Source of the DNA: an uncultured Chloroflexia bacterium
Lineage (GTDB): Bacteria > Chloroflexota > Anaerolineae > Anaerolineales > UBA4823
DNA length: 64,000 bases
Assembly: GCA_963774935.1 (NCBI GenBank)
Contig: CAVZGO010000003.1
Coordinates: 581,426 to 645,425, forward strand
Direction: 5' to 3'
How positions within the stretch are numbered: position 1 is the first letter of the stretch; the number at the start of each line of letters is the position of its first letter. Positions 7,148 to 31,821 of this stretch are shown here, in pieces. The notes beneath the pieces are model-generated. The model saw only the letters and a list, made by a program, of their open reading frames with translations. It was not told the DNA's origin and ran no database searches. Made by a program: the position numbers and the translations under genes.

Positions 7148-8611
7148 ATGAAAATTGAGCTTAGAGGCATCACAAAAACCTTCGGACGTGTCGTGGCAAA
7201 TAACGACATCCACCTCACGATTCCTGCCGGGTCAATTCAAGGAATATTGGGAGAGAATGGCGCCGGAAAAAGCACCCTGATGAAGGTTCTCTCAGGGTTT
7301 ATCCTGGCAGATAAAGGACAGATCCTTCTGGATGACCAGCCGGTGAGTATCGCATCCCCTGCAGATGCGATTCGAAACGGGGTTGGAATGCTTCACCAGG
7401 ATCCTTTGGATTTTCCGCCAATGAAAGTGATCGATAATTTCATCAATGGCAGCCAGGGTTCTCTATTTCCTAACCACAGCGCAATCACCAAGGCTTTCAA
7501 TGAGCTGCAAAACCAGTTTGATTTTTCCCTTGATCCAAAGGCATACGTCGATACACTGACCGTTGGCGAGCGACAACAACTGGAGATCTTGCGATTGCTC
7601 TGGCTGGGTGCTCGTGTGCTTATCCTGGATGAGCCCACTACAGGTATCAGCACAATGCAGAAAACCAAGCTCTTCTCTGCCCTGCGCCGGTTGGCAGAGC
7701 AAGGGAAATCCGTTATCTTTGTATCTCATAAACTCGAAGACGTTGAGCAGCTATGCAGCAGGGTGGCTGTACTTCGGCGAGGCCAACTGGTCGGCGAAAC
7801 CGAACCGCCATTTCTGATTTTCGACCTGGTACGGATGATGTTTGGTAAAGAAGTCAGTATGGGCGAGCGCTATGAGGTAGAGCCCGGTGAGCCCGTCCTG
7901 GATTTACACAACCTGGTAGTCGAAGATTATAAAATGCGCATTACCAGCCCAGATTTGCAAATCTGCCAGGGAGAAGTCGTCGGGATTGCCGGAATGGAAG
8001 GCAGCGGGCAGCAATTATTCCTGCGCGCCTGTTCTGGTCTGGTGCGACCGGTCAGCGGCAAAATTAACTTGAATGGAAAAGACCTGACAGGAAGCAATTA
8101 TCACGCCTTCATGCAGCATGGAGTAGCCTATGTCCCAGCCTCCCGCATGGATGAAGGCTTAATTCAAGGGCTATCGCTTTCTGAGCATTTTGTGCTGGCT
8201 GAGAAGCAGGAGCGTGTATTTATCGACTGGAAATCCACCCAGGAATTGGCGAGCAGCCGGATTGAAGAATACAATATTCGCGGCACACCTGCAACCCTGG
8301 TCGAAGACTTGTCCGGCGGTAATCAACAACGTGCTCTTTTAGCCCTGTTACGCATGCCACTTTCCTTGATTTTAATGGAACACCCAACGCGCGGCCTCGA
8401 CGTCGAGTCTTCGATTTACATCTGGAGTAAGCTGAAGGAACGCTGCAAGCAAGGCACCACGATTCTCTTCATTTCAGCCGACTTAGACGAAATATTACAA
8501 TACAGTGATCGTATCCTTGTATTTTTCGCGGGTCGTGTTACTGCTCCGCTCCCAGCTGCCAGCACTACGCTCGATCAGCTAGGCCAATATATCGGCGGTA
8601 AAGGTTTATGA
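7148..8611 (+). CDS. ABC transporter ATP-binding protein, duplicated ATPase (transporter 2)
   Basis: 487 aa. GENGAGKST, LTVGERQQLEI, VLILDEPT. Second half: GMEGSGQQ, LSGGNQQR, MEHPTRGLD. Confidence 0.9.
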   Translation: MKIELRGITKTFGRVVANNDIHLTIPAGSIQGILGENGAGKSTLMKVLSGFILADKGQILLDDQPVSIASPADAIRNGVGMLHQDPLDFPPMKVIDNFINGSQGSLFPNHSAITKAFNELQNQFDFSLDPKAYVDTLTVGERQQLEILRLLWLGARVLILDEPTTGISTMQKTKLFSALRRLAEQGKSVIFVSHKLEDVEQLCSRVAVLRRGQLVGETEPPFLIFDLVRMMFGKEVSMGERYEVEPGEPVLDLHNLVVEDYKMRITSPDLQICQGEVVGIAGMEGSGQQLFLRACSGLVRPVSGKINLNGKDLTGSNYHAFMQHGVAYVPASRMDEGLIQGLSLSEHFVLAEKQERVFIDWKSTQELASSRIEEYNIRGTPATLVEDLSGGNQQRALLALLRMPLSLILMEHPTRGLDVESSIYIWSKLKERCKQGTTILFISADLDEILQYSDRILVFFAGRVTAPLPAASTTLDQLGQYIGGKGL

Positions 8612-8659
8612 AGTCTAATAATATGCTCCGTTCACCGCATCAGCCGGATTGGAGGTGGA

Positions 8660-9703
8660 ATGCATAACGGAAAATCTACCTGGTTAAATATTGGCTTTCA
8701 ACTTGCTGCAGTTGCCGTTGCCATCCTCTTTACGACCATCATCCTTGTGCTCGCCGGAGCCCCACCCTTTAAGGCTTACGTGAATATTATTTTAGGGGCA
8801 TTTGGTTCATTTAAAAAATTCTCGGATGTATTGGTGGCGTTTGTCCCCTTAATGATTGTGACATCAGGTCTATTGGTCACATTTTCAGCGGGCTTGTGGA
8901 ATATCGGTATTGAGGGACAGATCACATTTGGTGCAATTTTTACCACCGGCACGCTGCGCATGCTGCAGGATAGCTCACTTTCTCCGGTATTAATTATCAT
9001 TCTATCTATCCTGGCAGGTATGCTGGGCGGAGCGCTTTGGGCTTCGCTGGCAGGCGCACTAAAAACCTATGGCGGGGTCAATGAGATATTCGGCGGATTG
9101 GGATTGAACTTTGTTGCTACTGCTTTTACATTGTGGCTTATCTTTGGCCCGTGGAAGCGTCCCGGGATCGGCTCGATGAGTGGAACCGAACCATTCCCGG
9201 AGACATTATGGCTGTCCACTCTGCCAGGTCTACGCTTGAGCATCTGGTCCATCATCCTGGCAATCCTTGGAATCGTTTTCGTTTATTTTCTCTTACAAGG
9301 CACATATTTCGGATTACAGCTTAAAGCTGTAGGGAAAAACATGCGCTCTGCTTTTATGCTCGGAATTCCAACCTCCCGCTATATGATGTCAGCATTCTTG
9401 ATTTGTGGCGCTTTCGCCGGATTAGCAGGCAGCATTCAAGTGGTTGCGATATATCATCGTCTAATCCCGTCTATCTCCAGCGGGTATGGCTTTCTAGGTC
9501 TGCTGGTGGCTATGTTGGTGAACTATCAAGCACTTTGGACCATCCCAATCGCTTTGTTCTTTGCTGTTCTAAACATTGGCAGCATTCAATTACCGATCGT
9601 CTTGAAACTGGACTCTGCACTTTCTGGTGTGCTCCAGGGCGCCCTGGTTCTATCTGTAATCATTATGGATGGCATCAGGCAGCGTTTCATCAAGAAGGAA
9701 TAG
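8660..9703 (+). CDS. ABC transporter permease (transporter 2)
   Basis: 347-aa polytopic ORF with GGAGGTGG RBS. Paralogous to 831..1982 (GLWNIGIEGQI motif). Confidence 0.85.
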   Translation: MHNGKSTWLNIGFQLAAVAVAILFTTIILVLAGAPPFKAYVNIILGAFGSFKKFSDVLVAFVPLMIVTSGLLVTFSAGLWNIGIEGQITFGAIFTTGTLRMLQDSSLSPVLIIILSILAGMLGGALWASLAGALKTYGGVNEIFGGLGLNFVATAFTLWLIFGPWKRPGIGSMSGTEPFPETLWLSTLPGLRLSIWSIILAILGIVFVYFLLQGTYFGLQLKAVGKNMRSAFMLGIPTSRYMMSAFLICGAFAGLAGSIQVVAIYHRLIPSISSGYGFLGLLVAMLVNYQALWTIPIALFFAVLNIGSIQLPIVLKLDSALSGVLQGALVLSVIIMDGIRQRFIKKE

Positions 9704-9713
9704 AGGTGACAGC

Positions 9714-10734
9714 ATGACAACCGAAACCATCATCATTGGATTGGCGGGAGTGTTGGCTGCTGCAGCACCTGTCATATTTGCTACCATCGGGGAAACGCTA
9801 TCTGAACGAGCTGGAGTAATCAACCTGTCCCTGAATGGCACCATATTGTTAGCTGCAATGAGCGGTTTTGCTGTGGCTGTGAAAACGGAGGACCTGCAAT
9901 TGGGCAGCATCAGCCTGTTATTGGGCTGCCTCACCGGTATGCTGGTAGGTGCACTGGTTGCCCTGGTGGTAGCTTTCGCCAGCATCACCCTGCACCAATC
10001 ACAGGTAGCTGTGGGCTTCGTCCTGGCATTGATGTGTCGCGACCTGGCATATTTCCTCGGCAATCCGATCATGGGTCTCGCCGGCCCACGCATTCCATCC
10101 TTCGCAATTCCTGGCCTGAGTCAAATACCGATCATTGGACCCTCTCCTGTTTCGCCAGGATATCTTAACTTATCTGAGCTATCTGGTTATCATCGCAGCC
10201 TGGGTGTGGATCTTTCGCACACGCGGTGGTCTGATTCTCCAGGGCATCGGGGAACGACCAGCAGCATCTTTCGTGCGAGGCGTCAATGTCAACCGCATGC
10301 GCTATTTTTATACCATCCTCGGAGGTGCACTGGCTGGTTTAGCAGGTCCTGTATACTCATTAAGCGTTAAAGCCGGCTGGAAAGGCACAATTTCAGGTTT
10401 GGATGGTATCGGTTGGATCGCGCTGGCCATCACCATCTTCGGGGGCTGGAATCCACTCCGCGCCGCCTTTGGCGCTTACCTGTTTGCGCTGTTACAATGG
10501 CTCGGTTTGGTTTTGCAACCCAGCTTACCAGGCATACCCTCTCAGGTATTACAGGTGGCGCCATTTCCGTTGATGATCCTGGCTTTACTGCTGGTGAATA
10601 TAGGCAACACCGAATGGATCGAGCGAATTCTGGCACAATTGCCAGATTCGACCCGCAGGTTGATCGGACGCATACTGCGCGCTTTGCGAGCAGCTCCACC
10701 CGCCTCCCTGGGCATACCGTTCGAACAAGAATAA
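9714..10734 (+). pseudogene. ABC transporter permease (transporter 2), frameshifted
   Basis: ATG 9714 with GAGGTG RBS. Frame 0 reads ...GLSQIPIIGP and then degenerates. Frame +1 (ORF 10135..10734) continues PLLFRQDILTYLSYLVIIAAWVWIF...GGWNP, colinear with paralog 1979..2914. The break is at the CCC run 10140..10142, an apparent extra C. Confidence 0.8.
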
Positions 10735-18511: not shown

Positions 18512-18557
18512 CCTTTAAGGGATGCATCATTCCGAATAAAAACCGGAGGTTTCTGAC

Positions 18558-19976
18558 ATGGCGATACTGATCAAGTCCGGAACAATCATTACCGATACAC
18601 AAACCTACATGGCTGACATACTGGTAGAAGACGGAGTCATAAAGGACATCGGAGCAAACCTCAGTTCTCCTTCCAGTCAGGTGGTTGATGCAACCGGAAA
18701 ATTAATATTACCGGGAGGCGTAGACCCCCATACCCATTTCGACCTGCCGATGTTTGGAACAGTCAGCTCTGACGATCATTACACCGGGCATAAGGCAGCT
18801 GCTTTCGGCGGCACAACAACCGTAATTGATTTTGTGTCTCAGGATTTACCAGGCTTATCCGATTGCGTACTTGCCTGGCATGCCAAGGCAGATGCCAAAG
18901 CGGTGGTTGATTTCGGCTTTCATATGAACATCACCCACCTGGATGATCGAGTAAAAAACGAAATCCCTCTGCTTCCAGAGATGGGCATTCCAAGTGTAAA
19001 AGTTTTTACTGCATATAACAATCGCCTCCGCCTCTCCGATGGTGAAATTTTTCAGGTATTACGAATAGCTCGTGATGCTGGGATGTTGACCCTGATCCAC
19101 GCAGAAAATGGTGATGTGATCGATATCCTCATCGAAGAAGCTCTCGCTGCAGGTCATACCAGCCCAGAATGGCATGCGCAGACCCGCCCCAGTTGGGGAG
19201 CTGTCGAGGCAACTTTACGCGGTGCTGCCCTGGCAGCTCAGGCAGACGCGCCGATTTACATCGTCCACATGAATGCAGCCGGCGAAGTTGATCAATTGGA
19301 TTATGCTCGTCGCCAGGGATTGAAAGTCATGGGAGAGACCTGCCCGCAGTATCTATTCTTTACAGAAGATGACCTGCGCAGGCAAGATGGTGCAAAATGG
19401 ATTTGTTCGCCTCCCATGCGTACAAAAATCGATAATGACAGGTTGTGGCGGGGTCTATCAGAAGGTACTATCCAGGTAATCGGAACTGATCATTGTCCTT
19501 TCTTTTTCGATGGCACGAAGTCGATTATTTATGAAGGGAAACCGGTGAGCATACCGGGTAAAGAGCTTGGTGTAGATGATTTCACCAAAATCCCCAACGG
19601 CTTACCATGTGTAGGTGACAGGTTGCCGGTTTTATGGACATACGGCGTTGGTAGCGGAAAAATTACCCCTAACCAGTTTGTCTCACTAACCTCCACCAAC
19701 CCGGCGAAAATTTTCGGTCTCTATCCTCAAAAAGGCTGCCTTGCTCCTGGTTCAGATGCTGATCTTGTGATTTGGGACCCTGACCGCCGATTGACCTACG
19801 GTATTGCCTATGCCCAGCACAGAACTGACTACAATTTATTTGAAGGTTGGGATTTGATTGGTTTCCCTGACCAGGTCTATCTTCGCGGTCAGTTGATTGT
19901 AGACCGTGGGAATTGGCTAGGTCGACCGGGTATGGGTCGATACATTCACCGGCAGACGAACGCAGTTCTGCTATAA
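18558..19976 (+). CDS. Dihydropyrimidinase / D-hydantoinase (cyclic amidohydrolase)
   Basis: 472 aa. Metal ligands DPHTHF, carboxylated-Lys context SVKVFTAY, HAENGD, GTDHCPF. GGAGG RBS. Confidence 0.85.
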   Translation: MAILIKSGTIITDTQTYMADILVEDGVIKDIGANLSSPSSQVVDATGKLILPGGVDPHTHFDLPMFGTVSSDDHYTGHKAAAFGGTTTVIDFVSQDLPGLSDCVLAWHAKADAKAVVDFGFHMNITHLDDRVKNEIPLLPEMGIPSVKVFTAYNNRLRLSDGEIFQVLRIARDAGMLTLIHAENGDVIDILIEEALAAGHTSPEWHAQTRPSWGAVEATLRGAALAAQADAPIYIVHMNAAGEVDQLDYARRQGLKVMGETCPQYLFFTEDDLRRQDGAKWICSPPMRTKIDNDRLWRGLSEGTIQVIGTDHCPFFFDGTKSIIYEGKPVSIPGKELGVDDFTKIPNGLPCVGDRLPVLWTYGVGSGKITPNQFVSLTSTNPAKIFGLYPQKGCLAPGSDADLVIWDPDRRLTYGIAYAQHRTDYNLFEGWDLIGFPDQVYLRGQLIVDRGNWLGRPGMGRYIHRQTNAVLL

Positions 19977-19980
19977 GCAA

Positions 19981-21583
19981 ATGCTGGTTCTGGCTCCGGT
20001 CTTATTATTCTACTCCGCCATCGTCCTGGTGTTTGCGATACACCTGTGGCGCCCAAAGTCTGGCTTGCCATGGCTGATCGCTCTGATCACTGCAATCCTG
20101 ACTTGGTTGGTTATCCTGGTATCTCGTTTACGTTTACCGGATACTTTTTTGTTCACCACAACAGAAATTCAACAAATTTTTCCTTATTCAGTCTCGCTTC
20201 GTTTAGATTTTGTCAGCTGGTCGTTCGCACTGGCAATCGTGGCTCTATTGATAGCAATGCTGTTGACCGCTCCAGTGCGGGTGGGCAATCTTTCCAACCA
20301 TTGGGATAAATGGGCGGCTGGTCTGCTCTTTTGCTCCATAGGGTATACAGCGGTCTCTTCAGGCAACCTGTATACCCTCGTAATTAGCTGGGCAGCATTG
20401 GATCTCGTCATTATCGTTCAAAGGCTGCTATCATTGCCAAAGGGCTCTGCGGCTGACCGTGTGTTTTTGGGGATTTTTCTGAGGTTAATAAGCCTGATGC
20501 TTGTGAGTTGGGCGGGCGTTACCATTGGTACTGTTCTACAACCAGTAGAGTTTTCCAATCCAGTGCCACGCCTGATATCAATGGTCTTGATTGCGGTCAT
20601 AATGCGTCTCGGTGCAGTGTTTGTTGAGGGCGCCGTTGATCAGCCTCTACCTGAAGGAAATGCACTTGGTTCCTTTCCCACATTAATTCAGGCAGCGTCC
20701 GTGCTGGTCATTCTGGTTTATATGGCCAGAGCTGACGTTTTTCCAGGAAATTCTCCGCAACTCATCTATACATTGGCGTCTGTTGCTGTTTTTTTTAGTG
20801 CTCTGTTCTGGCTGCTTTTCCGCGTCGGCTCAAGATCAGAGTATTCGTATTTCAATCACATTCGTAGCTTTTGCAATTGTTGCCACAATTGGATTGCAAA
20901 CGGATGCAGTTCTTGGGTGGTCTATTGCTCTACTTCTGGGTGGTGGCCTCGGATTATTTTATACCTATCGCCATCGAGGATTACTTCCGCTTCTAGTAAT
21001 TGGAGCGATTAATCTCTCAATGTTGCCATTCACACCGAATTGGATTGCTGCCCTGACTTATTCACCCCAAAATGCAGGCGGGCTGGCAGCGATTGGTTTC
21101 CCTTTTCTCTTAATGGCTCAGGCTTTCATCCTTGCAGGATATCTCTCTAGCGCTTTACTCTCTGCCACTTCCCAAAGAACTCTGGATCGTTGGATTTGGC
21201 TGGTCTATCCACCTGGTTTGTTGCTTCTAATCGTCGCGCATTGGATTATATTCATCTGGGGTCGTCCTGGTCTATCGCGAGGCATAGATGGTTTTCCGCC
21301 AATGAGTGCTATCTGGCCTGCTGTGATCGCGATTGTCCTAGCCGGTGTGCTCGCTCTGCTTAGAAGGCTGGATATACGACTTCCGAGCCGATGGATTCAA
21401 TTGGCACAACGAATTCTTTCCGTTGATTGGCTATTCGGTATTCTATGGTCCATTTATCGTGGGATTGGTCGCTTTTTTAACTTCATAGAACTTATCTTCG
21501 AAGGCGGTGGGGCGATCTTATGGACTTTGCTGTTCCTGGTTTTAGTCGTTGCCCTTTTTATCCAATTGTCTGGCGGGAGTTAG
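19981..21583 (+). pseudogene. Polytopic membrane protein, diverged NuoL/MrpA-like (antiporter-like) N-terminus, frameshifted
   Basis: ORFs 19981..21012 and 20783..21583 are consecutive TM-rich frames. The N-terminus follows the antiporter-subunit pattern (LRLDFVSWSFALAIV..., NLYTLVISWAALDLV) with WE replaced by WA. The junction lies in 20789..20819, which contains T8 and T4 runs. Confidence 0.55.
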
Positions 21584-21588
21584 CTACC

Positions 21589-22209
21589 TTGTTTCTGACA
21601 GTCGCCTTGCCTACGGTAATTATGCTCGCGGTTTTAGCTGTATTCTTGCTCGTCATCGAGGAATGGCGAGTACGAACCGTATTATTAGCCCTTCTCTATC
21701 TCGGGATATTCATTTTATCTGCAACAGGATTACCCATTGGTTTAGCAGTTACACACCTTCTAGCGGGTTGGACGGCATGCATTATCGTTGGTATGGCGAT
21801 CATGGCTATTCCATCAGAAGAATTAACAAAATTGGGGATTTCATCAGAAAAGTTGTCCATTCGATCCTTCAACCTGGAATCAAGACAGGTTTTTCAATTT
21901 TTATCCGCAATTTTGGTCGTGACGGCAACTTATTGGATATCTCCCCAAATGATGTCATGGATACCAGGCAGTGGCTTCGAACAGATCTGGGGTGGTCTGA
22001 TGTTAATCGCCCTGGGTATCACATTAATTGGATTCAACACTCGCCCATTTCCGGTGACTATCGGATTGCTAATAATTTTAGGCGGGTTTTTGATCATTTA
22101 TAGCATAGTAGAAAGTTCTACCCTTATCACGGGACTGTTAGCTGTTGTTATTATCGGGCTTGGGCTGGTAGGCGCATACATAATAACAGTCCAATATACA
22201 GAAGAATGA
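21589..22209 (+). CDS. Polytopic membrane protein, unknown function
   Basis: About 206-aa hydrophobic ORF. The TTG at 21589 sits just after the upstream stop (21581..21583). The ORF track extends to 21520, so the start is uncertain. The stop overlaps the next start. Confidence 0.5.
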   Translation: MFLTVALPTVIMLAVLAVFLLVIEEWRVRTVLLALLYLGIFILSATGLPIGLAVTHLLAGWTACIIVGMAIMAIPSEELTKLGISSEKLSIRSFNLESRQVFQFLSAILVVTATYWISPQMMSWIPGSGFEQIWGGLMLIALGITLIGFNTRPFPVTIGLLIILGGFLIIYSIVESSTLITGLLAVVIIGLGLVGAYIITVQYTEE

Positions 22210-23654
22210 TGACTTCACCATCGGTTTGGATTATATTCCCAGGCGTCATAGCAGTTATTCTCTTTCTAATTCGAAAGAAGAGTGGTCTGGTTAATTTCAT
22301 AGGCATCACGACAACGCTTCTACTCGCCGTTCTGGCATGGCGACTGCCGATTGACACACCTATGTCGCTTTCACCGATCTCCCAACATGAATTTATCTTG
22401 AACTCCACTTTGAACATTTACGGGCGAAGCTTCATCCTGGACAGCACATCACGTTTATTGCTGATCGTTGTTTATCTTAGCAGTGCCTTATGGTTTATTG
22501 GGTCAATTGCGGTTAAGACTTAACGAGCATTTATTCCCCTTGGCCTGGTTATCAGTGCATTATTGACCGCAGCCATTTCGGTCGAACCCTTTCTTTACGC
22601 GGCTGTACTAGTCGAGCTGGCTGCTTTGGTCAGCGTTATCGTCTTGTCTCCAGCAGGTCAGGCAGTCAAACCAGGCGTTCTGCGTTTCATTACATATCAA
22701 ACTTTAGGAATGGTTCTGCTCCTATTCGCCGGCTGGATGATGGATCAATTGGTTCTCAATCCTTCAGACGAACAATTGGAAATTCGTGCATCTATCATAT
22801 TAGGTTTGGGATTTGCGATGTTAATCTCTGCTTTCCCCTTCAGCACCTGGATTACCATGGTGGCAGAAGACTCGAACCCACTGACCGCGTCATTTATCTT
22901 CTTTCTCCCCCCTGTGATTATTACCTTAATCGGCGTCTCTTTCCTGGACCGTTATCCCATATTTCGTAGCACGCCCGGATTCACGGCAATCCTGGTTGTG
23001 CTAGGTGTTGTTATGATCTTCATTTCAGGAGTTTGGGCAGCGTTTCAACGGAATCTCGGTCGTATTTTCGGATTGGCTGTCGCAATGGAGATCGGGATGA
23101 TCCTGGTCGGATTGAGCCAATCCATTAACGCAGCGATGGTAGAACCTTTGCTTCACACAACATTGACATCTGGGAATGTTCTATACTCCTTTTTTCTTAC
23201 CCAACTCATTCCACGCGGTCTGAACCTGGCTATTTGGGCGTTATCGATGGCAATCATCCTGAGCAATACCAACAGTCTTAAATTCCGCGATATTCAGGGG
23301 GTAGCTCACCGATACCCGTTGGCGGTTCTCGGTTTTGGCGTCTCAAGTTTATCTCTGGCAGGATTTCCATTGTTTGCCGGTTATCCTTCAAGAATATCGA
23401 TCAGCTTACCGCTCGCTATTCAATCTAGCTGGCTTCCCGCTCTTATTTTCCTTGGCATGCTCGGCCTCTCAATTGCCATTATACGCAGTCTGGCGGTTTT
23501 GGTACCCAGCGGTCTTGCCTGGCAAATAACAGAAACTCGATTCCAGGTGGTATTAATTGTCCTGGGGTGCATTACGATGGTGCTGTTAGGCTTGTTTCCG
23601 CAATTATTCTTGACAGGTTTAAACCAGATAATAGGCATTCTTCCATCAGGTTAA
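22206..23654 (+). pseudogene. Diverged NuoN/MrpD-like (proton_antipo_M-like) membrane protein interrupted by in-frame TAA
   Basis: ORFs 22206..22523 and 22563..23654 are in the same frame, separated only by TAA at 22521..22523. The joined product matches NuoN order (LVELAAL, LRFITYQTLG, FPFSTWITMVAEDSNPLTA), but the conserved Lys/His positions are substituted. Confidence 0.6.
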
Positions 23655-23750: not shown

Positions 23751-24929
23751 ATGGAGATCGAACAACTTATAAAACAGTTAAATTGGCTGGATGAAGAAAG
23801 GCGTAGTGATAAAACCCGTATCGCTTCCCTGGAAGAACGCTTGGCTTCTTTGGAAGGGAATATCCCACCCTTGGCACGACAAATGAAAGACATTGGTGGC
23901 GAGATCACACGTTTAGAAGCCTTACTAGCACGGATGGATCATTTTGACGAAGCGCTTTTACAACAAAGAGTTGAAAGTAAGCAAGTTGTCGATGAATTGG
24001 AACGGGAATTGAAAAAGCGTGATGATGAGGCGGAGAAGCTCCACCGGGTCCAATTTCGAGCGGTTGACACCTCCATAGCAGAATTTCGAAAAGAACTTGA
24101 ACAGCTTCCGGAGATCAAACGGAGTTTAAAAGCCCGAGTTGAAGAAGAAAGCCGGCTGGCGAGGTTGATAGACGAAACACGCGCAAAAATAGATACCTCC
24201 CGCCACAGCGAAGAAGAGTATACGCGCGCATTTCGCTTGCTAGACGATGGTAGGCGCCAGGATGTGAAGCGCCTGACTGATTTGCAAGGAGAAGTTGCGG
24301 CAGTACGCAAGCGTGTTGATGAAAACCGTGGCAAGATCGAGCTACTCACGACCAGCACAAAAAAGGTAGAAGTACGAGTAGGAGAGCTCGCCTCAATAGA
24401 AAGCGAGCGCAAGGAAACCCTCGAGGATTTCGTCGAGAAGCAAACACTGTACCAGGTAGAACGCGATCGTGTCTGGAAAGAATGGGAAACTCGAATTCAG
24501 AGTATTGAAGCCCACACCGCCGATGTTGAAACCAACCTGCAGACCTTAGAAGCAACCCACCGGGCGGTAAAACGCACCCAGCAAACGGTCGACGAAATTG
24601 CTCAAAAAGTCGAGCGCAGGATCAATGAGCTAACGGAAATCCAACGTTTGTCCGAAGAACGCTTCCGCCAGGAATGGGTGACATTCAAAGCAGACGACCA
24701 AAAGCGCTGGACGAATTACACGCTCACGATTGAAGAGCAACGTAATGAATCAACCCGTCAATTTGAAAAATTAACAGAAAAAGTAGCGCTGCTAGGGGAT
24801 GGCTTACAGCAAATCGAGGACCTTGTCGCGCAGATCACTGAACAATCAGAAAAAAGGTTGCAGAGCCTGCTGGCGATGTCTCATGAATGGGTAGCATCTT
24901 ACGAGCGCTCTGTCGGGCGCAACCGGTAA
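23751..24929 (+). CDS. Coiled-coil protein, unknown function
   Basis: 392 aa, extremely rich in E/R/K/L/Q with heptad-like stretches and no TM segment. Strong codon periodicity, and the antisense ORF is the usual Ser/Arg mirror. Confidence 0.6.
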   Translation: MEIEQLIKQLNWLDEERRSDKTRIASLEERLASLEGNIPPLARQMKDIGGEITRLEALLARMDHFDEALLQQRVESKQVVDELERELKKRDDEAEKLHRVQFRAVDTSIAEFRKELEQLPEIKRSLKARVEEESRLARLIDETRAKIDTSRHSEEEYTRAFRLLDDGRRQDVKRLTDLQGEVAAVRKRVDENRGKIELLTTSTKKVEVRVGELASIESERKETLEDFVEKQTLYQVERDRVWKEWETRIQSIEAHTADVETNLQTLEATHRAVKRTQQTVDEIAQKVERRINELTEIQRLSEERFRQEWVTFKADDQKRWTNYTLTIEEQRNESTRQFEKLTEKVALLGDGLQQIEDLVAQITEQSEKRLQSLLAMSHEWVASYERSVGRNR

Positions 24930-24989
24930 ATCAAACCGGATGATTAAACAATTCCGATTTCTTATGGCACGCAATCTCGGAATAATTGA

Positions 24990-26918
24990 ATGCGCGTGAT
25001 TGGAACTGCCGGCCATGTCGATCATGGAAAGTCGACTCTGGTAGAAGCGCTTACTGGCATTCATCCTGATCGTCTGAAGGAAGAGCGAGAACGCGAGATG
25101 ACGATTGATCTCGGTTTTGCCTGGACGAAATTACCGGATGGCGAAGAGATCGGGATCGTGGATGTTCCGGGACACCGAGATTTTATTGAAAATATGCTAT
25201 CTGGCATTGGGGGGATAGACGCCGTCCTATTCGTCGTCGCGAGTGATGAAGGCGTGATGCCTCAGACACGTGAGCACCTGGCAATTCTGGATCTCTTACA
25301 AATCCAAAGAGGCGTGATTGCTTTGACCAAAATTGATTTGGTCGATGACGAATGGCTGGGGCTTATCAGGGATGATATCCTGAAAATTCTTTCCGGTACA
25401 TGCCTCGAAAATGCTCCTATGGTCCCTGTCTCGGCAAGGCAAAACTCAGGATTGGAAACGCTGAAACTGGCACTGAGCGCTTGCCTGGCGGACAGCCCTC
25501 CCCGACCTAATCTTGGGCGACCACGCTTGCCCATCGACCGTGTGTTTTCGATCGCTGGATTTGGTACCATTGTTACTGGAACCCTCAGCGATGGCGAGCT
25601 AAAAGTTGGTGATGAAGTTGAGATTTTACCGGGTGGGTCGCGTGGCCGAATCCGGGGCTTACAAACCCACAAGCGAAAGGAATCTATCGCACACCCTGGT
25701 GGAAGAACTGCGGTGAACATCTCCGGTATCTCCATGGAGCACGTTGTACGCGGAGAGGTGCTCACTCACCCCGGTGTATATCAATCGTCCCGCCGGATGG
25801 ATGTTCATTTCCGCTTGCTTAAGGATGCCAGCAGTCCGCTGAAACATAATGTTGAGTTAAAAATGTTTCTTGGTGCAGCCGAAACCATTGCCCGCGTACG
25901 ATTGCTAGGAAGTGAAGAGCTGCTCCCAGGTCAGGAAGGTTGGTTGCAGCTAGAGCTCGCTGACCCAATTGTTGCTGTAAGGGGTGATCGGTTTATCCTC
26001 CGTCGGCCTTCACCAGGCGAAACCCTTGGGGGTGGCAGTATCGTTGATCCCCACCCGAAAGGCCGGCATAAGCGATTCTCCGCAGACACCATCCTCAGTC
26101 TGGAGAATCTGTCTGTGGGCACGCCAGAAGAAATTCTTATGGAAGCTCTCAATGCCTCCGGAGCAACGACGCTCAAAGATGTCATTGCCCGCGCCAATCT
26201 GGATGTTGGCAGCGGTTCAAATGCAGCAATACTCTTACAAACAACCGGTCAACTGGTCGTGCTTGATCCTGGCTCTCCCATCGAACTTAATCGAACAAAT
26301 CAAATTGAATCGAATGATCTAGTTGCCAGCCAGGCCTACGTTGAACGTGTCTCCAAACGCATGCTCCAAGAAGTACAAAATTATCATGAAACCTTTCCTC
26401 TCCGCCTGGGAATTCCTCGGGAGGAATTGCGCAGCCGGCTCAAAATCGCAACGGGGTTAACCCCGCGCATCTTCAGCTTAATTTATACCCGTTTGTTGAG
26501 TGCTGGTGTAATAATAGAAAGCGGTTTATTGATTCATACACCAAACCATCAGATTCGCTTCTCTCCTACCCAGCAGCAGACGATCACAGAATTACTTGCC
26601 TTATTTAAAAAGGCGCCTTACGCTCCACCTTCGATAAAAGAGTGCCAGGCAATGATTGGCGACGATTTATACCAGGCACTTGTAGATAACGGCACACTCG
26701 TTGCTGTCTCCTCCGAGGTAGTCTTTTTCAAGGAAGATTACACCCACATGGTCTCTGAAATCACTGGTTTAATCCGTGCAAAAGGACCCATCACAGCCGC
26801 GCAGGTCCGAGATCATTTCAATACAAGTCGCAAATTTGTTTTAGGAATTCTCGAACACATGGATGAGATCGGTGTTACAGTCCGAGAAGGCGATAGCCGT
26901 CGATTGAAAGCCGGCTAA
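24990..26918 (+). CDS. selB: Selenocysteine-specific translation elongation factor SelB
   Basis: 642 aa. G1 GHVDHGKST, G3 DVPGH, G4 TKID, EF-Tu-like domains II/III, and the long C-terminal winged-helix extension characteristic of bacterial SelB. Confidence 0.9.
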   Translation: MRVIGTAGHVDHGKSTLVEALTGIHPDRLKEEREREMTIDLGFAWTKLPDGEEIGIVDVPGHRDFIENMLSGIGGIDAVLFVVASDEGVMPQTREHLAILDLLQIQRGVIALTKIDLVDDEWLGLIRDDILKILSGTCLENAPMVPVSARQNSGLETLKLALSACLADSPPRPNLGRPRLPIDRVFSIAGFGTIVTGTLSDGELKVGDEVEILPGGSRGRIRGLQTHKRKESIAHPGGRTAVNISGISMEHVVRGEVLTHPGVYQSSRRMDVHFRLLKDASSPLKHNVELKMFLGAAETIARVRLLGSEELLPGQEGWLQLELADPIVAVRGDRFILRRPSPGETLGGGSIVDPHPKGRHKRFSADTILSLENLSVGTPEEILMEALNASGATTLKDVIARANLDVGSGSNAAILLQTTGQLVVLDPGSPIELNRTNQIESNDLVASQAYVERVSKRMLQEVQNYHETFPLRLGIPREELRSRLKIATGLTPRIFSLIYTRLLSAGVIIESGLLIHTPNHQIRFSPTQQQTITELLALFKKAPYAPPSIKECQAMIGDDLYQALVDNGTLVAVSSEVVFFKEDYTHMVSEITGLIRAKGPITAAQVRDHFNTSRKFVLGILEHMDEIGVTVREGDSRRLKAG

Positions 26919-26981
26919 TAAGGGGTGTTATAATAAAAAGGCTGGAGGTTGTCAGTCTTCAATTCAACCAGGAGATATGGT

Positions 26982-29213
26982 ATGAAAGAATCGAAACAAC
27001 CTGCAAAGGTGCAGCGACAGGTTCAAAAAGGGATCACGATCTTGCTCATGTCTATGATCGTGCTAAGCCTGTTTTCATTGAATTCCATTTATAACACTCG
27101 TGCTGCTTCTCAGATTGGCATCAGTGCTGCAGAAGATGTAACCGTAAATTTCCAATACGGTGTCTCTCCCTCGTCAAGCTACACAGGTGCGATTGACACC
27201 TATATCTCTCAACTAGCACCCAATGACCCTTTTGGTCAGGCAGCCCGACTGCTTCTGGATGGTGATGACCCAGTAGGAACTGGTAATGATATCTACAGCC
27301 TGTTGCAATGGGATGTAAGCTCAATTCCGATCACTTCTACCATTTCATCTGCCAGTATCACATTATTCGTCAACACCGCAGGCGTAAGCAATTATTCCAT
27401 CCCAATTTATGGCCTGAAGCGCCAGTGGTCTGAGAACCAGGCTACCTGGAATGTCTATTCATTCGGCAATAATTGGCAGGTACCAGGAGCTGCAGGCACA
27501 GACGATCGTTATCCTGCCGTTGTAGCCATGCTACAAGGCACCAGCACAGGATTTATAACAATACCGTTCGGGTCTGCCGGACTCGCATTGGTACAATCCT
27601 GGGTTAGTGATCCTATGACGAACCACGGCCTGATCATTTCGGATCCAGCCCTCGCCGGACGGATTGATCTGGATTCAAACCAATCCACTACCGCTGCCAA
27701 CCGGCCGAGACTGAGCTTATCCTATCAGATTCCACCAGTCCAGCAGACAGCCACCGCCGGCGCTGCAACTGCGACTGCTTCTGCTATTGCTGCTACCGAT
27801 AATGCAGCAACTGCAACAGCCTCCTTCGTCGCGCCGACTCAAACGTCCATAGCCGCCACTTCCATTGCAGGCACTGCCACCGCAATCGCCGCAGCCACCC
27901 AAACTGCAACCGCATCGATAACGCCGACCATTGTACCCAGCATCAACCTGGTTAAATCTGTCAGCCCGAGCCAGGCATCAAGAGGTGCCGCTTTCACCTT
28001 TTCCATTGGCGTAGGAAATGCGAGTGTGTTCGAAGTAAGCAATGTAGTCATCCGCGATGGACCTTTCCCGGCAACACTGACGATTACCGGCGCGCAGATT
28101 ACGCCTTCGAACTCTGGCACCTTCTCGATTAACCAGACCACACGTGTGGTATCTTTTTTCCTTGACCCGCTGTCAGCCAATGAATCGGTTACCCTGGCGA
28201 TTTACACCCAGGTCAATACGAATGCGACAACCAACACCAATGAAACCAACGTCGCAACGATGACTTACACTGCCGCCGGATTTAGCTTTTCGAAAACATC
28301 CAACTCGGTAACGTACCGGGTACTCGGTGCAACCACGCTTCCAGGCACAGGGGGGTTGCAAGCCCCAACAGATGCTGGTAATGGATTAGCTGTCATCGTA
28401 TTCGTCAGTGCAATAATCATCGCTCTCATAGGATTAGGCGCTATCGGGTTCAGCCTGTGGGCGCGCAAAAATCAACCCACCTGGAGTGGGTGGTTAATCC
28501 GCATGGGAATTTTCTTGTGTTTTGCTGGATTAATTTTTGGTGCTGGCGCATGGGCTATCGGTTTAGCGGGTCAACCAGCCGCCCCTGTAACAAGCGTGGA
28601 TAATCCGGTCAACCCAATCGCCACCAGCATGCCGGAGGAAGACCTTTCCTCTCTTTATCTTCCCACATCCACACCTCTGTCCTTACCGGATTTTCCAATT
28701 CCTACGCCATCCCTGTCCGCAGATACCGCGAATAGCGAGAACCAACCGGATACCTCACCCATCGAGCATATTTACATCCCCGGTCTCAGTCTAGACACCG
28801 TAGTCAAATATGTACCTTATGATGGTCAAACCTGGAAGATCGGCGGTCTGAGAGAAGAAATTGCATGGATGGGAGATACCTCCTGGCCTGGTCTGGGAGG
28901 AAATACAGGTCTGGCAGGGCATGTCACACTAGGGGATGGCAGCAATGGGCCGTTCTCCAATTTATATAAGGTTCAGCCTGGCGACCTGGTTATGCTCTAT
29001 ACCCAGAAGAATATCTACACCTACACAGTCAGGGAACAGAGAACAGTTGAGGATGATTCTATGTTTGTGTTGGGCCAGTCGAGCAATCCTCAGCTCACAC
29101 TCATAACCTGTTCCAACTGGGATACGAATATGCGCCTGTATTTGAACAGGCTGGTCGTATTTGCCGATCTCAAGTCAGTAGAGCCTATTCGAGGCGCCAG
29201 CCAGGGGAATTAG
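26982..29213 (+). CDS. Surface protein (DNRLRE-like + DUF11-like domains, LPGTG sorting signal) fused in-frame to a sortase domain
   Basis: ATG 26982 with GGAG 8 nt upstream. Signal anchor, then ...TNHGLIISDP...NRPRLSLSY, an Ala/Thr linker, and LPGTG at 28338..28352 followed by a hydrophobic helix and ARKN. A second TM helix follows, then the sortase motifs LAGHV, TLITCS (Cys 29109..29111) and LNRLVVFA. Confidence 0.8.
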   Translation: MKESKQPAKVQRQVQKGITILLMSMIVLSLFSLNSIYNTRAASQIGISAAEDVTVNFQYGVSPSSSYTGAIDTYISQLAPNDPFGQAARLLLDGDDPVGTGNDIYSLLQWDVSSIPITSTISSASITLFVNTAGVSNYSIPIYGLKRQWSENQATWNVYSFGNNWQVPGAAGTDDRYPAVVAMLQGTSTGFITIPFGSAGLALVQSWVSDPMTNHGLIISDPALAGRIDLDSNQSTTAANRPRLSLSYQIPPVQQTATAGAATATASAIAATDNAATATASFVAPTQTSIAATSIAGTATAIAAATQTATASITPTIVPSINLVKSVSPSQASRGAAFTFSIGVGNASVFEVSNVVIRDGPFPATLTITGAQITPSNSGTFSINQTTRVVSFFLDPLSANESVTLAIYTQVNTNATTNTNETNVATMTYTAAGFSFSKTSNSVTYRVLGATTLPGTGGLQAPTDAGNGLAVIVFVSAIIIALIGLGAIGFSLWARKNQPTWSGWLIRMGIFLCFAGLIFGAGAWAIGLAGQPAAPVTSVDNPVNPIATSMPEEDLSSLYLPTSTPLSLPDFPIPTPSLSADTANSENQPDTSPIEHIYIPGLSLDTVVKYVPYDGQTWKIGGLREEIAWMGDTSWPGLGGNTGLAGHVTLGDGSNGPFSNLYKVQPGDLVMLYTQKNIYTYTVREQRTVEDDSMFVLGQSSNPQLTLITCSNWDTNMRLYLNRLVVFADLKSVEPIRGASQGN

Positions 29214-29242
29214 TCGACGATCCAATCATTCAAGTAAATAAA

Positions 29243-29279
29243 CCTGCTTGCTAATAAATGTTAGCAAGCAGGATTTTTT
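29243..29279. terminator. Bidirectional rho-independent terminator between convergent sortase-fusion and parB genes
   Basis: 11-bp stem cctgcttgcta (29243..29253) / tagcaagcagg (29262..29272), followed by atttttta and preceded by aaataaa. Confidence 0.75.
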
Positions 29280-29313
29280 AATAAAATAGCTGATAGCGAA
29301 GTTCGAGTTGACG

Positions 29314-30171
29314 TCAGTCTTTGTCTAGAAATTGCTCAACGATGGCGTTCAGTTCCTCGAATGAGAAGCACCGAATGACAATTGCGCCACCATCGTTGTA
29401 GTAATGGACATTAACTTTTGTGCTGAAGCGGTTAGAGAGCCGTGTTTCCAGATCGCTCAATTCAGGAGGAGGCAGCGGTATTTCAACTTTGGCAGGGCGT
29501 TCACCTTTCATCTTCTGCACTAATGCCTCTGTCTGGCGAACATTTAATTCCAGTCGCAGTACGGTGTGCAACGCCGCTATTTGTGCCTCTGGTGTTGGCA
29601 GCCCATTTAATGCTCTGGCGTGACCCTCGCTGATCTTTCTCGCAAGCAGCGTTTCTTTGACAGGATTGGCGAGATTTAATAACAGCATTGTGTTCGTCAC
29701 TGTCACACGAGACTTGCCAACTCGCCTGGCGATTTCGTCATGGGTCATCTGGAAATCATCTGCCAAATGCCGGTATGCCTCAGCCATTTCGAGCGCATTT
29801 AAGTCCGCCCGTTGGACATTTTCGACCAGGGCTAACTCCAGGCGCTGCTGGTCGCTGGCTTCACGCACAATCACAGGAATCCGGTCCAAGCCAGCTAGCT
29901 GCGCTGCCATCCATCGCCTCTGACCCGCGATTAGCAAATACTGGTTATCCTGGTTTGGGTCTTCGGTAACAATGACCGGCTGGATCAGCCCATGCTCTCG
30001 AATCGATTCAGCCAGCTCATCAAGCTCAGATTGGTGAAAGTCCTGGCGCGGCTGGCTCGGATTCGGTTTAATTTGAGCTAAAGATAGGGTGACCACCCCG
30101 CTGCGGTCCCCACCTTCAGCGCCAGGGATCAATGCATCTAAACCTCGACCCAAGCCAGACTTGCGTGTCAT
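29314..30171 (-). CDS. parB: Chromosome partitioning protein ParB/Spo0J
   Basis: 285 aa. N-terminal GLGRGLDALI, GLIQPVIV, the ParB-box IAGQRRWMAA, and an HTH (THDEIARRVGKSRVTVTN). Confidence 0.9.
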   Translation of the reverse strand: MTRKSGLGRGLDALIPGAEGGDRSGVVTLSLAQIKPNPSQPRQDFHQSELDELAESIREHGLIQPVIVTEDPNQDNQYLLIAGQRRWMAAQLAGLDRIPVIVREASDQQRLELALVENVQRADLNALEMAEAYRHLADDFQMTHDEIARRVGKSRVTVTNTMLLLNLANPVKETLLARKISEGHARALNGLPTPEAQIAALHTVLRLELNVRQTEALVQKMKGERPAKVEIPLPPPELSDLETRLSNRFSTKVNVHYYNDGGAIVIRCFSFEELNAIVEQFLDKD

Positions 30172-30966
30172 TGCTTCTCCAATATCGCTGGAATGTTCAC
30201 CCCATCACCTTGCAGGACTTCGCGTGCCAGAGCTGCATAAGCTACCGCGCCGCTCGAGCTGGGTGCAAACGCAGAGATTGGTTGCCCGTAGGAAGGAGCC
30301 TCAGCTAATCGGATCGAGCGAGGGATGAGCGAAGAAAAGACCTGCTGAGGGAAGAAGCGCCTTACCTCCTCAACCACATCAGCCGCAAGATTGGTTCGCC
30401 CATCATACATAGTCATTACCACACCACGGACGCTTAAATTCGAAGCCAGAGCAGAGCGCACACGATTGATTGTGACGGTCAACTGACTCAACCCCTCAAG
30501 CGCCAGGTATTCACATTGGACAGGGATGATCACCCCATCCTTCGCTGCTACAATACCATTCAACGTCAATAAGCCTAACGACGGAGGGCAATCAATGAGT
30601 ATGTAATCATACCGGTCTACAATCGGCGTACAGTCCCTGCTTCAATCGTGTTTCGCGCGATAATTCGGAGACCAGCTCGACTTCACCGCCCGCCAGCGCA
30701 GGCGATGCAGGCAGAATGGACATCTTCAACCGAGGGTTATGCAGGATATGGTTGATCGCTGGAGAGCTGCCAATCAGGACTTCATAAGTTCCGCCCCGAA
30801 CGGTTTGCTTATCGATTTTCAAGCACGAAGTCGCATTCGCCTGCGGATCAAGATCGACAAGCAGAACTCGCTGACCATAATACGCCAGGTATGCCCCTAA
30901 ATTAATGGCGGTCGTGGTTTTTCCAACGCCGCCTTTTTGATTAACCAGTGTATAAATCGTTCCCAT
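30168..30966 (-). pseudogene. parA: ParA/Soj partition ATPase, frameshifted
   Basis: The N-terminal ORF 30607..30966 has the deviant Walker A NQKGGVGKTTT and ends ...RLKQGLYADCRPV*. The other frame reads ...PIVDRYDYILIDCPPSLGLLTLNG into ORF 30168..30569. The junction is about 30620..30635. There is an ATGA overlap with parB. Confidence 0.9.
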
Positions 30967-30974
30967 AGCTCGAT

Positions 30975-31821
30975 TTAAAAGACTTCAACCAGGCATTCCT
31001 GGATATCTTCTTGGGTTGGTATTCCGGCAAATCCATATTTAGTCACTGAGCGGGATGCAAGCTGGGTCGCAAAACGGGCAGCCTCCCAGGGATCGCGAGT
31101 GGTGTAAAGCCGAGAGAAGAATGTGGCTGCAAAGATATCGCCTGCACCCGTCGAAATCAACTTCAGTTACCGTTGGTGCACGAAATCGGCGGACATCTCC
31201 ATTCCAATACAGTCGCGCGCCTGCCTCTCCTTCTGTGACTGCTAAGATTTTACAGGAGGCACTCATTTCCTCAACTCTTGCTTCGTCATGATCAACATCT
31301 GCAAGACTGATAACAGCAGCAGTGCTTCGCTCAAGCACAAAGCGTGCTTCCGGCCATTCCACCGAATGAACAAGCCCATCTTTATCCCAATCCCGCATCC
31401 AACCCTGAGGAGTCATACCCACCATCGAGTCAGAAAATCCCCTTACGATGGACGGCTCTACTTCCTGTGCAACGGGCGCCAGATGGACAATCGCTGAGTC
31501 TCGCCAGGCTTCTGGAACCTGATAATAATCTAGCTTGGCTGCTGGATGAGAAAGCCACTGTTTTCTCCCTTGGGGGTGAGAAATATTTTCAAATGTGGTG
31601 CTATTCTCCGCAGGGATATTAACAACCGGAATATGGCGGATTAAATCAGCAGGGATTTCATTCGCCCAGGAGGTCACGATGCCCACTCTCATACCTAATG
31701 CAGAAGCAGTCAGGCCAGCATAAACAGCTGTGCCTCCCAATTGTAACCCACCGGGGGTCTTATCGATTGTGATGTGACCGATGATTAGATAGTCTACTGG
31801 TTGGAGTGGGAGAAGTTCCAT
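30975..31821 (-). pseudogene. PfkB-family carbohydrate/ribokinase-like kinase, frameshifted
   Basis: The 260-aa ORF (31039..31821) carries the N-terminal GGxxxN-like sugar-kinase region. The C-terminal ORF 30975..31160 carries the GAGD motif (STGAGDIFAATFF). The break is at the AAA run 31154..31156, an extra T on the coding strand. Confidence 0.75.

Follow-up and report, generated by a model that had tools for sequence, protein, structure and literature searches.

The window analysed here is a stretch of 64,000 nucleotides from an uncultured Chloroflexia bacterium (assembly GCA_963774935.1, contig CAVZGO010000003.1, positions 581,426 to 645,425). On its forward strand lies a single open reading frame (ORF) in which a surface protein, a complete LPXTG-type sorting signal and a sortase are encoded as one polypeptide. 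In textbook sortase display, the enzyme and the substrate are encoded by separate genes. Here, the two are joined by a predicted hairpin of two transmembrane (TM) segments, and the fusion gene is genuine and ancient in the Anaerolineae (Chloroflexota). All the elements that the original prediction had named in one ORF of 743 codons were recovered at their positions through ORF analysis, hydropathy and profiles. Further, the three families it had recognised, namely sortase, DNRLRE and DUF11, were each matched above the cut-off of the respective model. The features are collected in Table 1.

Table 1. Features of the fusion gene and its immediate surroundings, in window coordinates (aa, amino-acid residue; nt, nucleotide; AF2, AlphaFold2; pLDDT, predicted local distance difference test)
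Feature	Position	Strand	Remarks
Whole gene	26982..29213	+	ATG at 26982, stop codon at 29211-29213; 743 codons plus stop; surface protein, sorting signal and sortase in one polypeptide
Shine-Dalgarno-like AGGAG	26970..26974	+	7 nt 5' of the ATG; read from the sequence
Predicted Sec signal peptide	26982..27107	+	basic n-region; core aa 17-33; hydropathy segment aa 14-38; possible cleavage site after TRA, at about aa 41
DNRLRE domain (passenger head)	27195..27719	+	NCBIfam NF033679, aa 72-246; E 4.5e-20, 72.4 bits against a cut-off of 34
Ala/Thr-rich low-complexity linker	27729..27929	+	aa 250-316; 24 Ala and 17 Thr in 67 residues; AF2 pLDDT <50
DUF11/CLIPPER Ig-like stalk domain	27942..28328	+	PF01345, match at aa 321-428, 34 bits against a cut-off of 24.6; last strand SNSVTYRVLG included
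LPGTG sorting motif	28338..28352	+	aa 453-457; predicted cut between Thr456 and Gly457
TM1, hydrophobic segment of the sorting signal	28386..28460	+	aa 469-493, 25 residues; from hydropathy; predicted outside to inside
Basic loop ARKNQPTWSG, predicted cytoplasmic	28461..28490	+	corresponds to the charged tail of a sorting signal, but forms a hairpin turn instead of the C-terminus
TM2, sortase membrane anchor	28491..28568	+	aa 504-529; from hydropathy; predicted inside to outside
Pro/Ser-rich tether, TM2 to catalytic domain	28569..28769	+	67 aa; from composition; low pLDDT
Tether motif LPDFPIPTP	28683..28709	+	aa 568-576; family consensus LPDYPIPTP
Sortase catalytic domain	28770..29171	+	PF04203, aa 597-730; E 3.5e-22, 78.9 bits against a cut-off of 26.6
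Catalytic residues	His647 28920-28922; Cys710 29109-29111; Arg723 29148-29150	+	in LAGHV, TLITC and LNRLVV, respectively
Bidirectional terminator-like hairpin	29243..29272	.	perfect 13-bp stem, T-runs on both strands; between the fusion gene and convergent parB

The same Met serves as the start in P0001, a 98% identical protein. The signal peptide was called from hydropathy only, and an N-terminal hydrophobic segment is also present in 53 intact orthologous ORFs. The DUF11/CLIPPER segment is modelled by AF2 as an all-beta domain with a pLDDT of 88-96. For the intramolecular Lys-Asn isopeptide bond of CLIPPER domains, with its catalytic Asp, candidate residues picked by eye are the K of INLVKSV and the D of VIRDGPFP. 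The DNRLRE region is 40% identical to its counterpart in P0002, an orthologue described below, and AF2 confidence is partial there.

It could be argued that the ORF is an artefact, in which an adjacent LPXTG surface-protein gene and a sortase gene were merged through a lost stop codon or an indel. The original prediction had itself held that a lost stop between two genes must be excluded. The caveat is a reasonable one, as damage of the indel type is present in the neighbouring genes of the window. The parA gene is split into two ORFs of 133 and 119 residues (30168-30966, minus strand), and the gene of the PfkB-family kinase reads as two split or overlapping ORFs (61 and 260 residues; 30975-31821, minus strand), both breaks looking like assembly indel errors. 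Nevertheless, the interval 28440-28510, which covers the junction, contains neither a stop nor a frame change. The same holds for a second copy of the locus, found on an 859-kb ENA contig from another assembly (L002), where a 22-kb stretch is 97.6% identical to the window and encodes a 743-residue protein with 98% identity. On this contig, it is selB that is broken instead (8008-9940). The two copies of the fusion gene are 97.3% identical and align with zero indels; of the codons that differ, 43 are changed synonymously and 15 non-synonymously, a pattern that points to purifying selection. Across the junction itself (codons 499-527), all six differences are synonymous, including the three in the loop, at codons 499, 502 and 503.

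A more distant comparison was offered by P0002, an 814-residue syntenic orthologue encoded on a Logan contig (L001) from a separate sequencing run, ERR14373510. This contig carries selB upstream and parB, parA, pfkB and rplS downstream, as in the window. The two proteins share about 50% identity over the C-terminal 423 residues, and their elements follow in the same order, except that P0002 has an fn3 domain where the Ala/Thr linker stands in the window protein. Despite this level of divergence, the junction peptide, consisting of the basic loop and TM2, is kept at the amino-acid level and in frame (ARKNQPTWSGWLIRMG in the window protein, compared with SSRNLTEWTGWFVRTG in P0002). Thus, no stop after ARKN, of the kind that the original prediction had proposed to look for, is found in either orthologue.

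The wider family gives the same picture. When one genome was scanned for each GTDB species, 100 loci were confirmed and 80 of these were kept, all 80 from Anaerolineae, Anaerolineales or Chloroflexota metagenome-assembled genomes (MAGs). In 69 of these 80 species-representative loci, the LPxTG motif and the sortase lie within one ORF. The fused state comprises 53 loci with one intact ORF (signal, LPxTG, hairpin and sortase), one further intact ORF on a complete chromosome (L025, CP070639.1), which the search pattern had missed and which was checked by hand, ten where the end of the contig cuts the ORF, and five with a break farther upstream. The contigs that hold the junction in frame belong to many independent assemblies and include some with k141_ and NODE_ names, typical of short-read assemblers. 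Two of the remaining loci are contig-end fragments too short to judge. In the other nine, the LPxTG motif is found just upstream of the sortase but in another frame, as the artefact would predict. Eight of these nine, however, come from MFD-named MAGs, which are assumed here to be error-prone long-read assemblies, and the splits are consistent with indel errors. Taken with the two orthologous copies, these counts exclude a lost stop, and the merging of two ordinary genes is left with a practically negligible likelihood.

One of the split loci (L066, about 9666-10564) is the sole case in which the passenger ORF ends as a classical C-terminal signal, with LPGTG, a TM segment, RRW and a stop. The sortase is in another frame at this locus, and the cause is either an indel from long-read sequencing or a natural, if rare, splitting of the fusion. 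Other candidates for an unfused or separately controlled sortase were also considered and rejected. Database entries of 320-360 residues, which might be taken for natural unfused forms, start in the middle of a CLIPPER domain, and are thus truncated gene calls. A word-indexed protein search with residues 317-500, aimed at unfused relatives of the substrate half, gave no match of any kind and carries no weight on this point. Translation of a separate sortase from Met508 is improbable, as this position is Thr, Met or Ala in the family. A small palindrome, ACCCACCTGGAGTGGGT, lies at 28475-28491 in the DNA of the TM1-TM2 loop; it is not kept in the orthologous Logan contig, was rejected as a regulatory hairpin, and is probably there by chance.

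Residues 430-743, used in an exhaustive HMMER search, matched 184 cluster representatives at E<=1e-30. Among the 150 with the best matches, the majority are proteins of 500-1466 residues, aligned from just before the LPxTG motif to the C-terminal sortase. In nearly all the relatives, a hydrophobic segment at the N-terminus is followed by LPxTG and two TM segments, with the catalytic Cys some 266 residues past the motif. This order of elements recurs in considerably more than 100 independent sequences, which is far beyond chance. In the databases, the family goes by the names 'sortase' or 'LPXTG-site transpeptidase family protein'. The passengers differ in length and in the head domain, while CLIPPER-type Ig-like domains are almost constant and number from one to several per passenger. 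Among 55 full-length members, DUF11 was found in 54, DUF7619 in 39 and DUF7507 in 37.

The fusion gene is usually single-copy and syntenic. Across 83 loci, the convergent parB gene was found at 68, parA at 66 and pfkB at 65, and upstream a coiled-coil protein and selB at 38 each (window region 23751-31821; loci L003-L082). A glutamate racemase gene also lies within the conserved neighbourhood. The single copy and the conserved synteny indicate an old, vertically inherited core gene and not a sporadic fusion. Tandem second copies were seen at two loci (L019, 1-3259, and L028, 2003-5222); in the former, both copies carry LPPTG and the ORFs overlap by 14 nucleotides. In the window, the hairpin behind the gene resembles a terminator common to the fusion gene and parB, and the minus-strand ORFs that overlap the fusion gene are short and without support. 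Farther upstream lies a block (window about 18557-23650; L002 1577-6672) encoding an amidohydrolase, a Proton_antipo_M-like membrane protein and two proteins of 533 and 206 residues without a Pfam match, homologues of which recur in 14-34 related loci.

The sorting signal was followed across the family in a MAFFT alignment of 151 C-terminal regions, for which the catalytic Cys had been used as a selection criterion. Out of the 151 sequences, L is kept in 150, P in 147, T in 149 and G in 150, while the x position is free (G in 91, P in 28, N in 9, and others). Mean pairwise identity is 0.33 before the motif and rises to 0.86 in LPxTG. It falls to 0.15 in the spacer, 0.26 in TM1, 0.19 in the loop, 0.25 in TM2 and 0.15 in the tether, and reaches 0.57 in the catalytic domain. 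The motif is thus as conserved as the catalytic triad, unlike its flanks. Among the 55 full-length members, the only invariant columns are Met1, L453, P454, T456, G457 and positions of the sortase region. Four near-invariant residues around a free x, between variable flanks, are the signature of recognition by an enzyme and not of a structural element. The precursor also has the other marks of a sortase substrate, as the pentapeptide is followed by a hydrophobic segment and the basic ARKN, and a predicted signal peptide stands at the N-terminus. What differs is the place of the signal, which is not at the extreme C-terminus, as about 247 residues (TM2, tether and sortase) follow the basic tail.

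The tether holds a second conserved element, LPD[YF]PIPTP, some 20 residues ahead of the first strand of the sortase. With a pairwise identity of 0.56, it matches the catalytic core, and L568, P569, P574 and P576 are kept in 140-150 of the 151 sequences. AF2 confidence is moderate there. The element might serve as a lid or a pseudo-substrate, or might pack against the barrel.

The charge distribution around the hairpin is informative about its orientation. The TM1-TM2 loop has a family mean of 3.36 K+R against 0.52 D+E, whereas the spacer between LPxTG and TM1 has 0.97 against 1.84, and the stretch after TM2 has 1.89 against 4.38. With a basic loop, acidic outer segments and a signal peptide, the positive-inside rule places both LPGTG and the sortase outside. 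The predicted layout is a passenger and motif on the outer face, TM1 running from outside to inside, a cytoplasmic loop, TM2 running back from inside to outside, and the tether and sortase again outside. Judged from these sequence features, the overall topology is that of a classical substrate joined to that of a classical N-terminally anchored sortase.

Structure prediction agrees with this layout. AF2 was run on a 314-residue construct with a 44-sequence alignment and on the full-length protein with a 50-sequence alignment. The shorter model contains a tight TM hairpin with a pLDDT above 90, and in the full-length model, helices are found at residues 465-497 (TM1) and 499-529 (TM2, packed against TM1). 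The spacer between LPGTG and TM1 has 11 residues in this protein. Over the family, the distance from the motif to TM1 is 8-74 residues (median 15), and the tether has 54-127 residues (median 74). With such spans, the motif of the same chain and that of an adjacent copy are both within range of the active site.

As for the enzyme, a sortase fold in the C-terminal part, on which the original prediction depended, was detected by PF04203 at residues 597-730 and is supported by the models. TIGR01076 scored 41.8 bits on the isolated domain against a cut-off of 39.35, and 38.2 bits on the whole protein, just below it. AF2 predicts a confident barrel with a pLDDT mostly of 80-97, and Foldseek relates it to SrtA and SrtE structures with a probability of 1.00, a target TM-score of 0.7-0.83 and 22-27% identity; for Listeria SrtA (5hu4), the probability is 1.00 and the target TM-score is 0.8. 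The predicted domain thereby has the eight-stranded beta-barrel of sortases. The full-length model returned only sortases among the top 50 Foldseek matches, and the passenger domains, compared with the PDB by sequence, gave no significant match and no CLIPPER match. The catalytic His and Arg are present in 151 of 151 relatives, and so is the Cys, which served for their selection; all three, with the Cys in TLxTC, are invariant in the 55 full-length members. With its catalytic residues intact, the fused enzyme is predicted to be active.

Its class is another matter. The best of the NCBIfam class models was that of class E, with 43.8-46.3 bits against a cut-off of 160, followed by class F (40.2-44.1 against 166), class D (30.4-34 against 165), class C (26.3-29.9 against 160) and class GN, TIGR03784 (23.5-26.7 against 158). 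There was no class A model among the NCBIfam hits, and class A was compared through structures only. Since no class-specific cut-off was reached, the fused sortase is not to be filed under an existing class.

Taken together, these features suggest a passenger with a complete LPxTG signal that is joined via a two-helix hairpin to its own sortase, by which the signal would be processed. We consider this reading reasonably probable, and processing would most likely take place either in cis or between copies. Self-processing or processing between molecules had already been read from the fusion by the original prediction, and the conservation of LPxTG and the charge distribution lend it strong backing. 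In the proposed mechanism, the N-terminal signal peptide would carry the passenger, with its DNRLRE head, Ala/Thr linker and CLIPPER stalk, across the membrane. Transfer would be stopped by TM1, so that the basic loop would remain in the cytoplasm. TM2 would then cross the membrane again, and the tether of about 65 residues and the sortase domain would thereby come to lie outside too. Cys710 could now attack the Thr456-Gly457 bond of LPGTG, in its own chain or in a neighbouring copy, giving a thioester between the passenger and the enzyme. An envelope nucleophile, most likely a peptidoglycan precursor, would resolve the thioester and leave the passenger covalently attached to the cell surface, while the fragment from Gly457 through TM1, the loop and TM2 to the sortase would stay in the membrane. 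Engineered fusions of a sortase with an LPXTG site are known to cleave themselves (PMC2901362), and such chemistry is thus feasible within a fused chain.

Several observations weigh against this reading. Neither the anchor profile PF00746 nor the NCBIfam LPXTG-anchor model matched the isolated segment, even at E<=10. No covariation was detected between the variable x and the sortase columns (mutual information <=0.16 bits). In the AF2 models, LPGTG is not docked in the active site, the motif having a pLDDT below 50 in the 314-residue model and about 55 at full length; at such low confidence, the models are silent on docking in cis. Further, the survey covered 20-kb neighbourhoods, and a dedicated self-processing is not established by it. 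Lastly, cleavage and the acceptor are what we infer from the sequence, as are the course of the reaction in cis or in trans and the target that the passenger may bind.

The undocked motif would also be in line with a fusion that is real but whose LPxTG is not cut by the fused enzyme. The protein would then be an uncleaved sortase with three TM segments that acts on other substrates, or its motif would be cut by a separate sortase, and the tandem second copies at some loci make action between different proteins conceivable. Such an arrangement is unlikely in our view, as L, P, T and G would hardly stay near-invariant around a free x, between such highly variable flanks, and as no other sortase would have a local concentration as high as that of the fused enzyme. 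Moreover, 57 fused ORFs were found in 1.44 Mb of Anaerolineae DNA, with no credible classical LPxTG substrate besides the split at L066; this sample is a weak one, being drawn mostly from the same syntenic region.

Processing by the fused enzyme might also end differently. Sortases are known to hydrolyse their substrate when the nucleophile is absent. The enzyme could be a site-specific protease, or could transfer the passenger to an acceptor other than peptidoglycan, so that the passenger would be shed into the medium, the matrix or the sheath, or be carried on a lipid or a glycan. The envelope of the Anaerolineae is poorly characterised, and the DNRLRE domain resembles carbohydrate-binding modules, with a weak Disaggr_repeat match in the window protein and CBM96 co-occurring in the relatives, both of which would suit such an outcome. 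The glutamate racemase gene of the conserved neighbourhood, however, suggests that peptidoglycan is made, and shedding or transfer to another acceptor is regarded here as improbable.

A third alternative is a pilus-like polymerisation, in which the lysine of another passenger would resolve the acyl-enzyme and the CLIPPER stalks would be chained, each subunit bringing its own polymerase. CLIPPER domains are CnaA-like and form stalks in fibrillar adhesins and in pilins (PMC12617251), and the presence of one to several such domains per passenger would fit. Against polymerisation, no invariant lysine or pilin-motif column was seen in the passengers of the 55 full-length members, and the class C model reached 26-30 bits against its cut-off of 160. 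Polymerisation is, therefore, judged very unlikely.

Processing of the signal by the fused sortase, in cis or between copies, thus stays the preferred reading. A stricter form of it would be a self-contained 'autosortase', in which the chain would hold the sole sortase and the sole LPxTG substrate that the cell needs for this protein, would react in cis, possibly with a single turnover, and would leave the enzyme, spent or reusable, in the membrane. This stricter form is doubtful, though worth stating for what would follow from it.

No description of a natural LPxTG-sortase fusion was found in the full-text literature, a search that leaves most subscription-journal papers outside, and none is mentioned in a 2021 review of sortase classes. 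Within that scope, the original prediction was right in knowing of no described example, and sortase-mediated surface display with the enzyme and the substrate in one polypeptide, conserved across the Anaerolineae, is undescribed in the literature searched. The nearest described systems are the housekeeping sortases (class A and class E) of Gram-positives, with their LPXTG or LAXTG substrates. These share with the fusion protein the fold, the His-Cys-Arg triad, the tripartite signal, the signal peptide and the predicted topology of each half, in which the substrate TM segment runs from outside to inside and the sortase anchor from inside to outside. They are encoded by separate genes, whereas here there is one polypeptide with an internal signal, the basic tail of which has become the loop of a hairpin. 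Further, the fused enzyme is only 22-27% identical to solved sortases, and its host belongs to the Chloroflexota. In the type V autotransporters, the passenger and the delivery machinery are made as one polypeptide, with cleavage between them, and the machinery is an outer-membrane beta-barrel. The likeness is one of analogy and not of homology, as the delivery part is a beta-barrel there and a transpeptidase here.

In Proteobacteria such as Shewanella and Colwellia, among others, one sortase is paired with one target, going by the account of Comfort and Clubb 2004 as cited in PMC8225981. These pairs, which belong to the class GN 'marine sortase' (TIGR03784), resemble the present system, as far as that account goes, in being one-to-one outside the classical Gram-positives. 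The partners are separate genes there, in contrast to the covalent fusion here, and the TIGR03784 cut-off is not reached by the fused enzyme. Engineered sortase-LPXTG tags, such as the Mao method and BISOP, likewise hold the enzyme and the site in one self-cleaving chain (PMC2901362). They are, however, artificial and soluble, with the order sortase, LPXTG and target, which is the reverse of that in the fusion protein, and without a membrane hairpin. Lastly, CLIPPER fibrillar adhesins share the signal peptide, a variable head, Ig-like CLIPPER stalks and a C-terminal sorting element (PMC12617251), but they end in the sorting or anchor domain and their sorting enzyme is encoded separately.

The fusion matters in more than one respect. 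The annotation 'sortase' alone hides the substrate half of these proteins. For classification, the family represents a divergent sortase lineage outside all the current class models. For mechanism, it offers a built-in one-to-one system in which to ask how sortases find their membrane substrates, since the hairpin hard-wires the contact between the substrate TM helix and the sortase TM helix. It may also find use as a natural and compact scaffold on which tools for self-processing display or for ligation could be built. If the self-contained form were true, nature would have its own counterpart of the engineered sortase tags that cleave themselves, and monoderms an analogue of the autotransporters. 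The family would then be a new sortase class, found in the Anaerolineae only, and would belong to the core envelope of these filamentous bacteria. In terms of distribution, active LPxTG sorting would be extended to the Chloroflexota, a phylum whose envelope is poorly understood.

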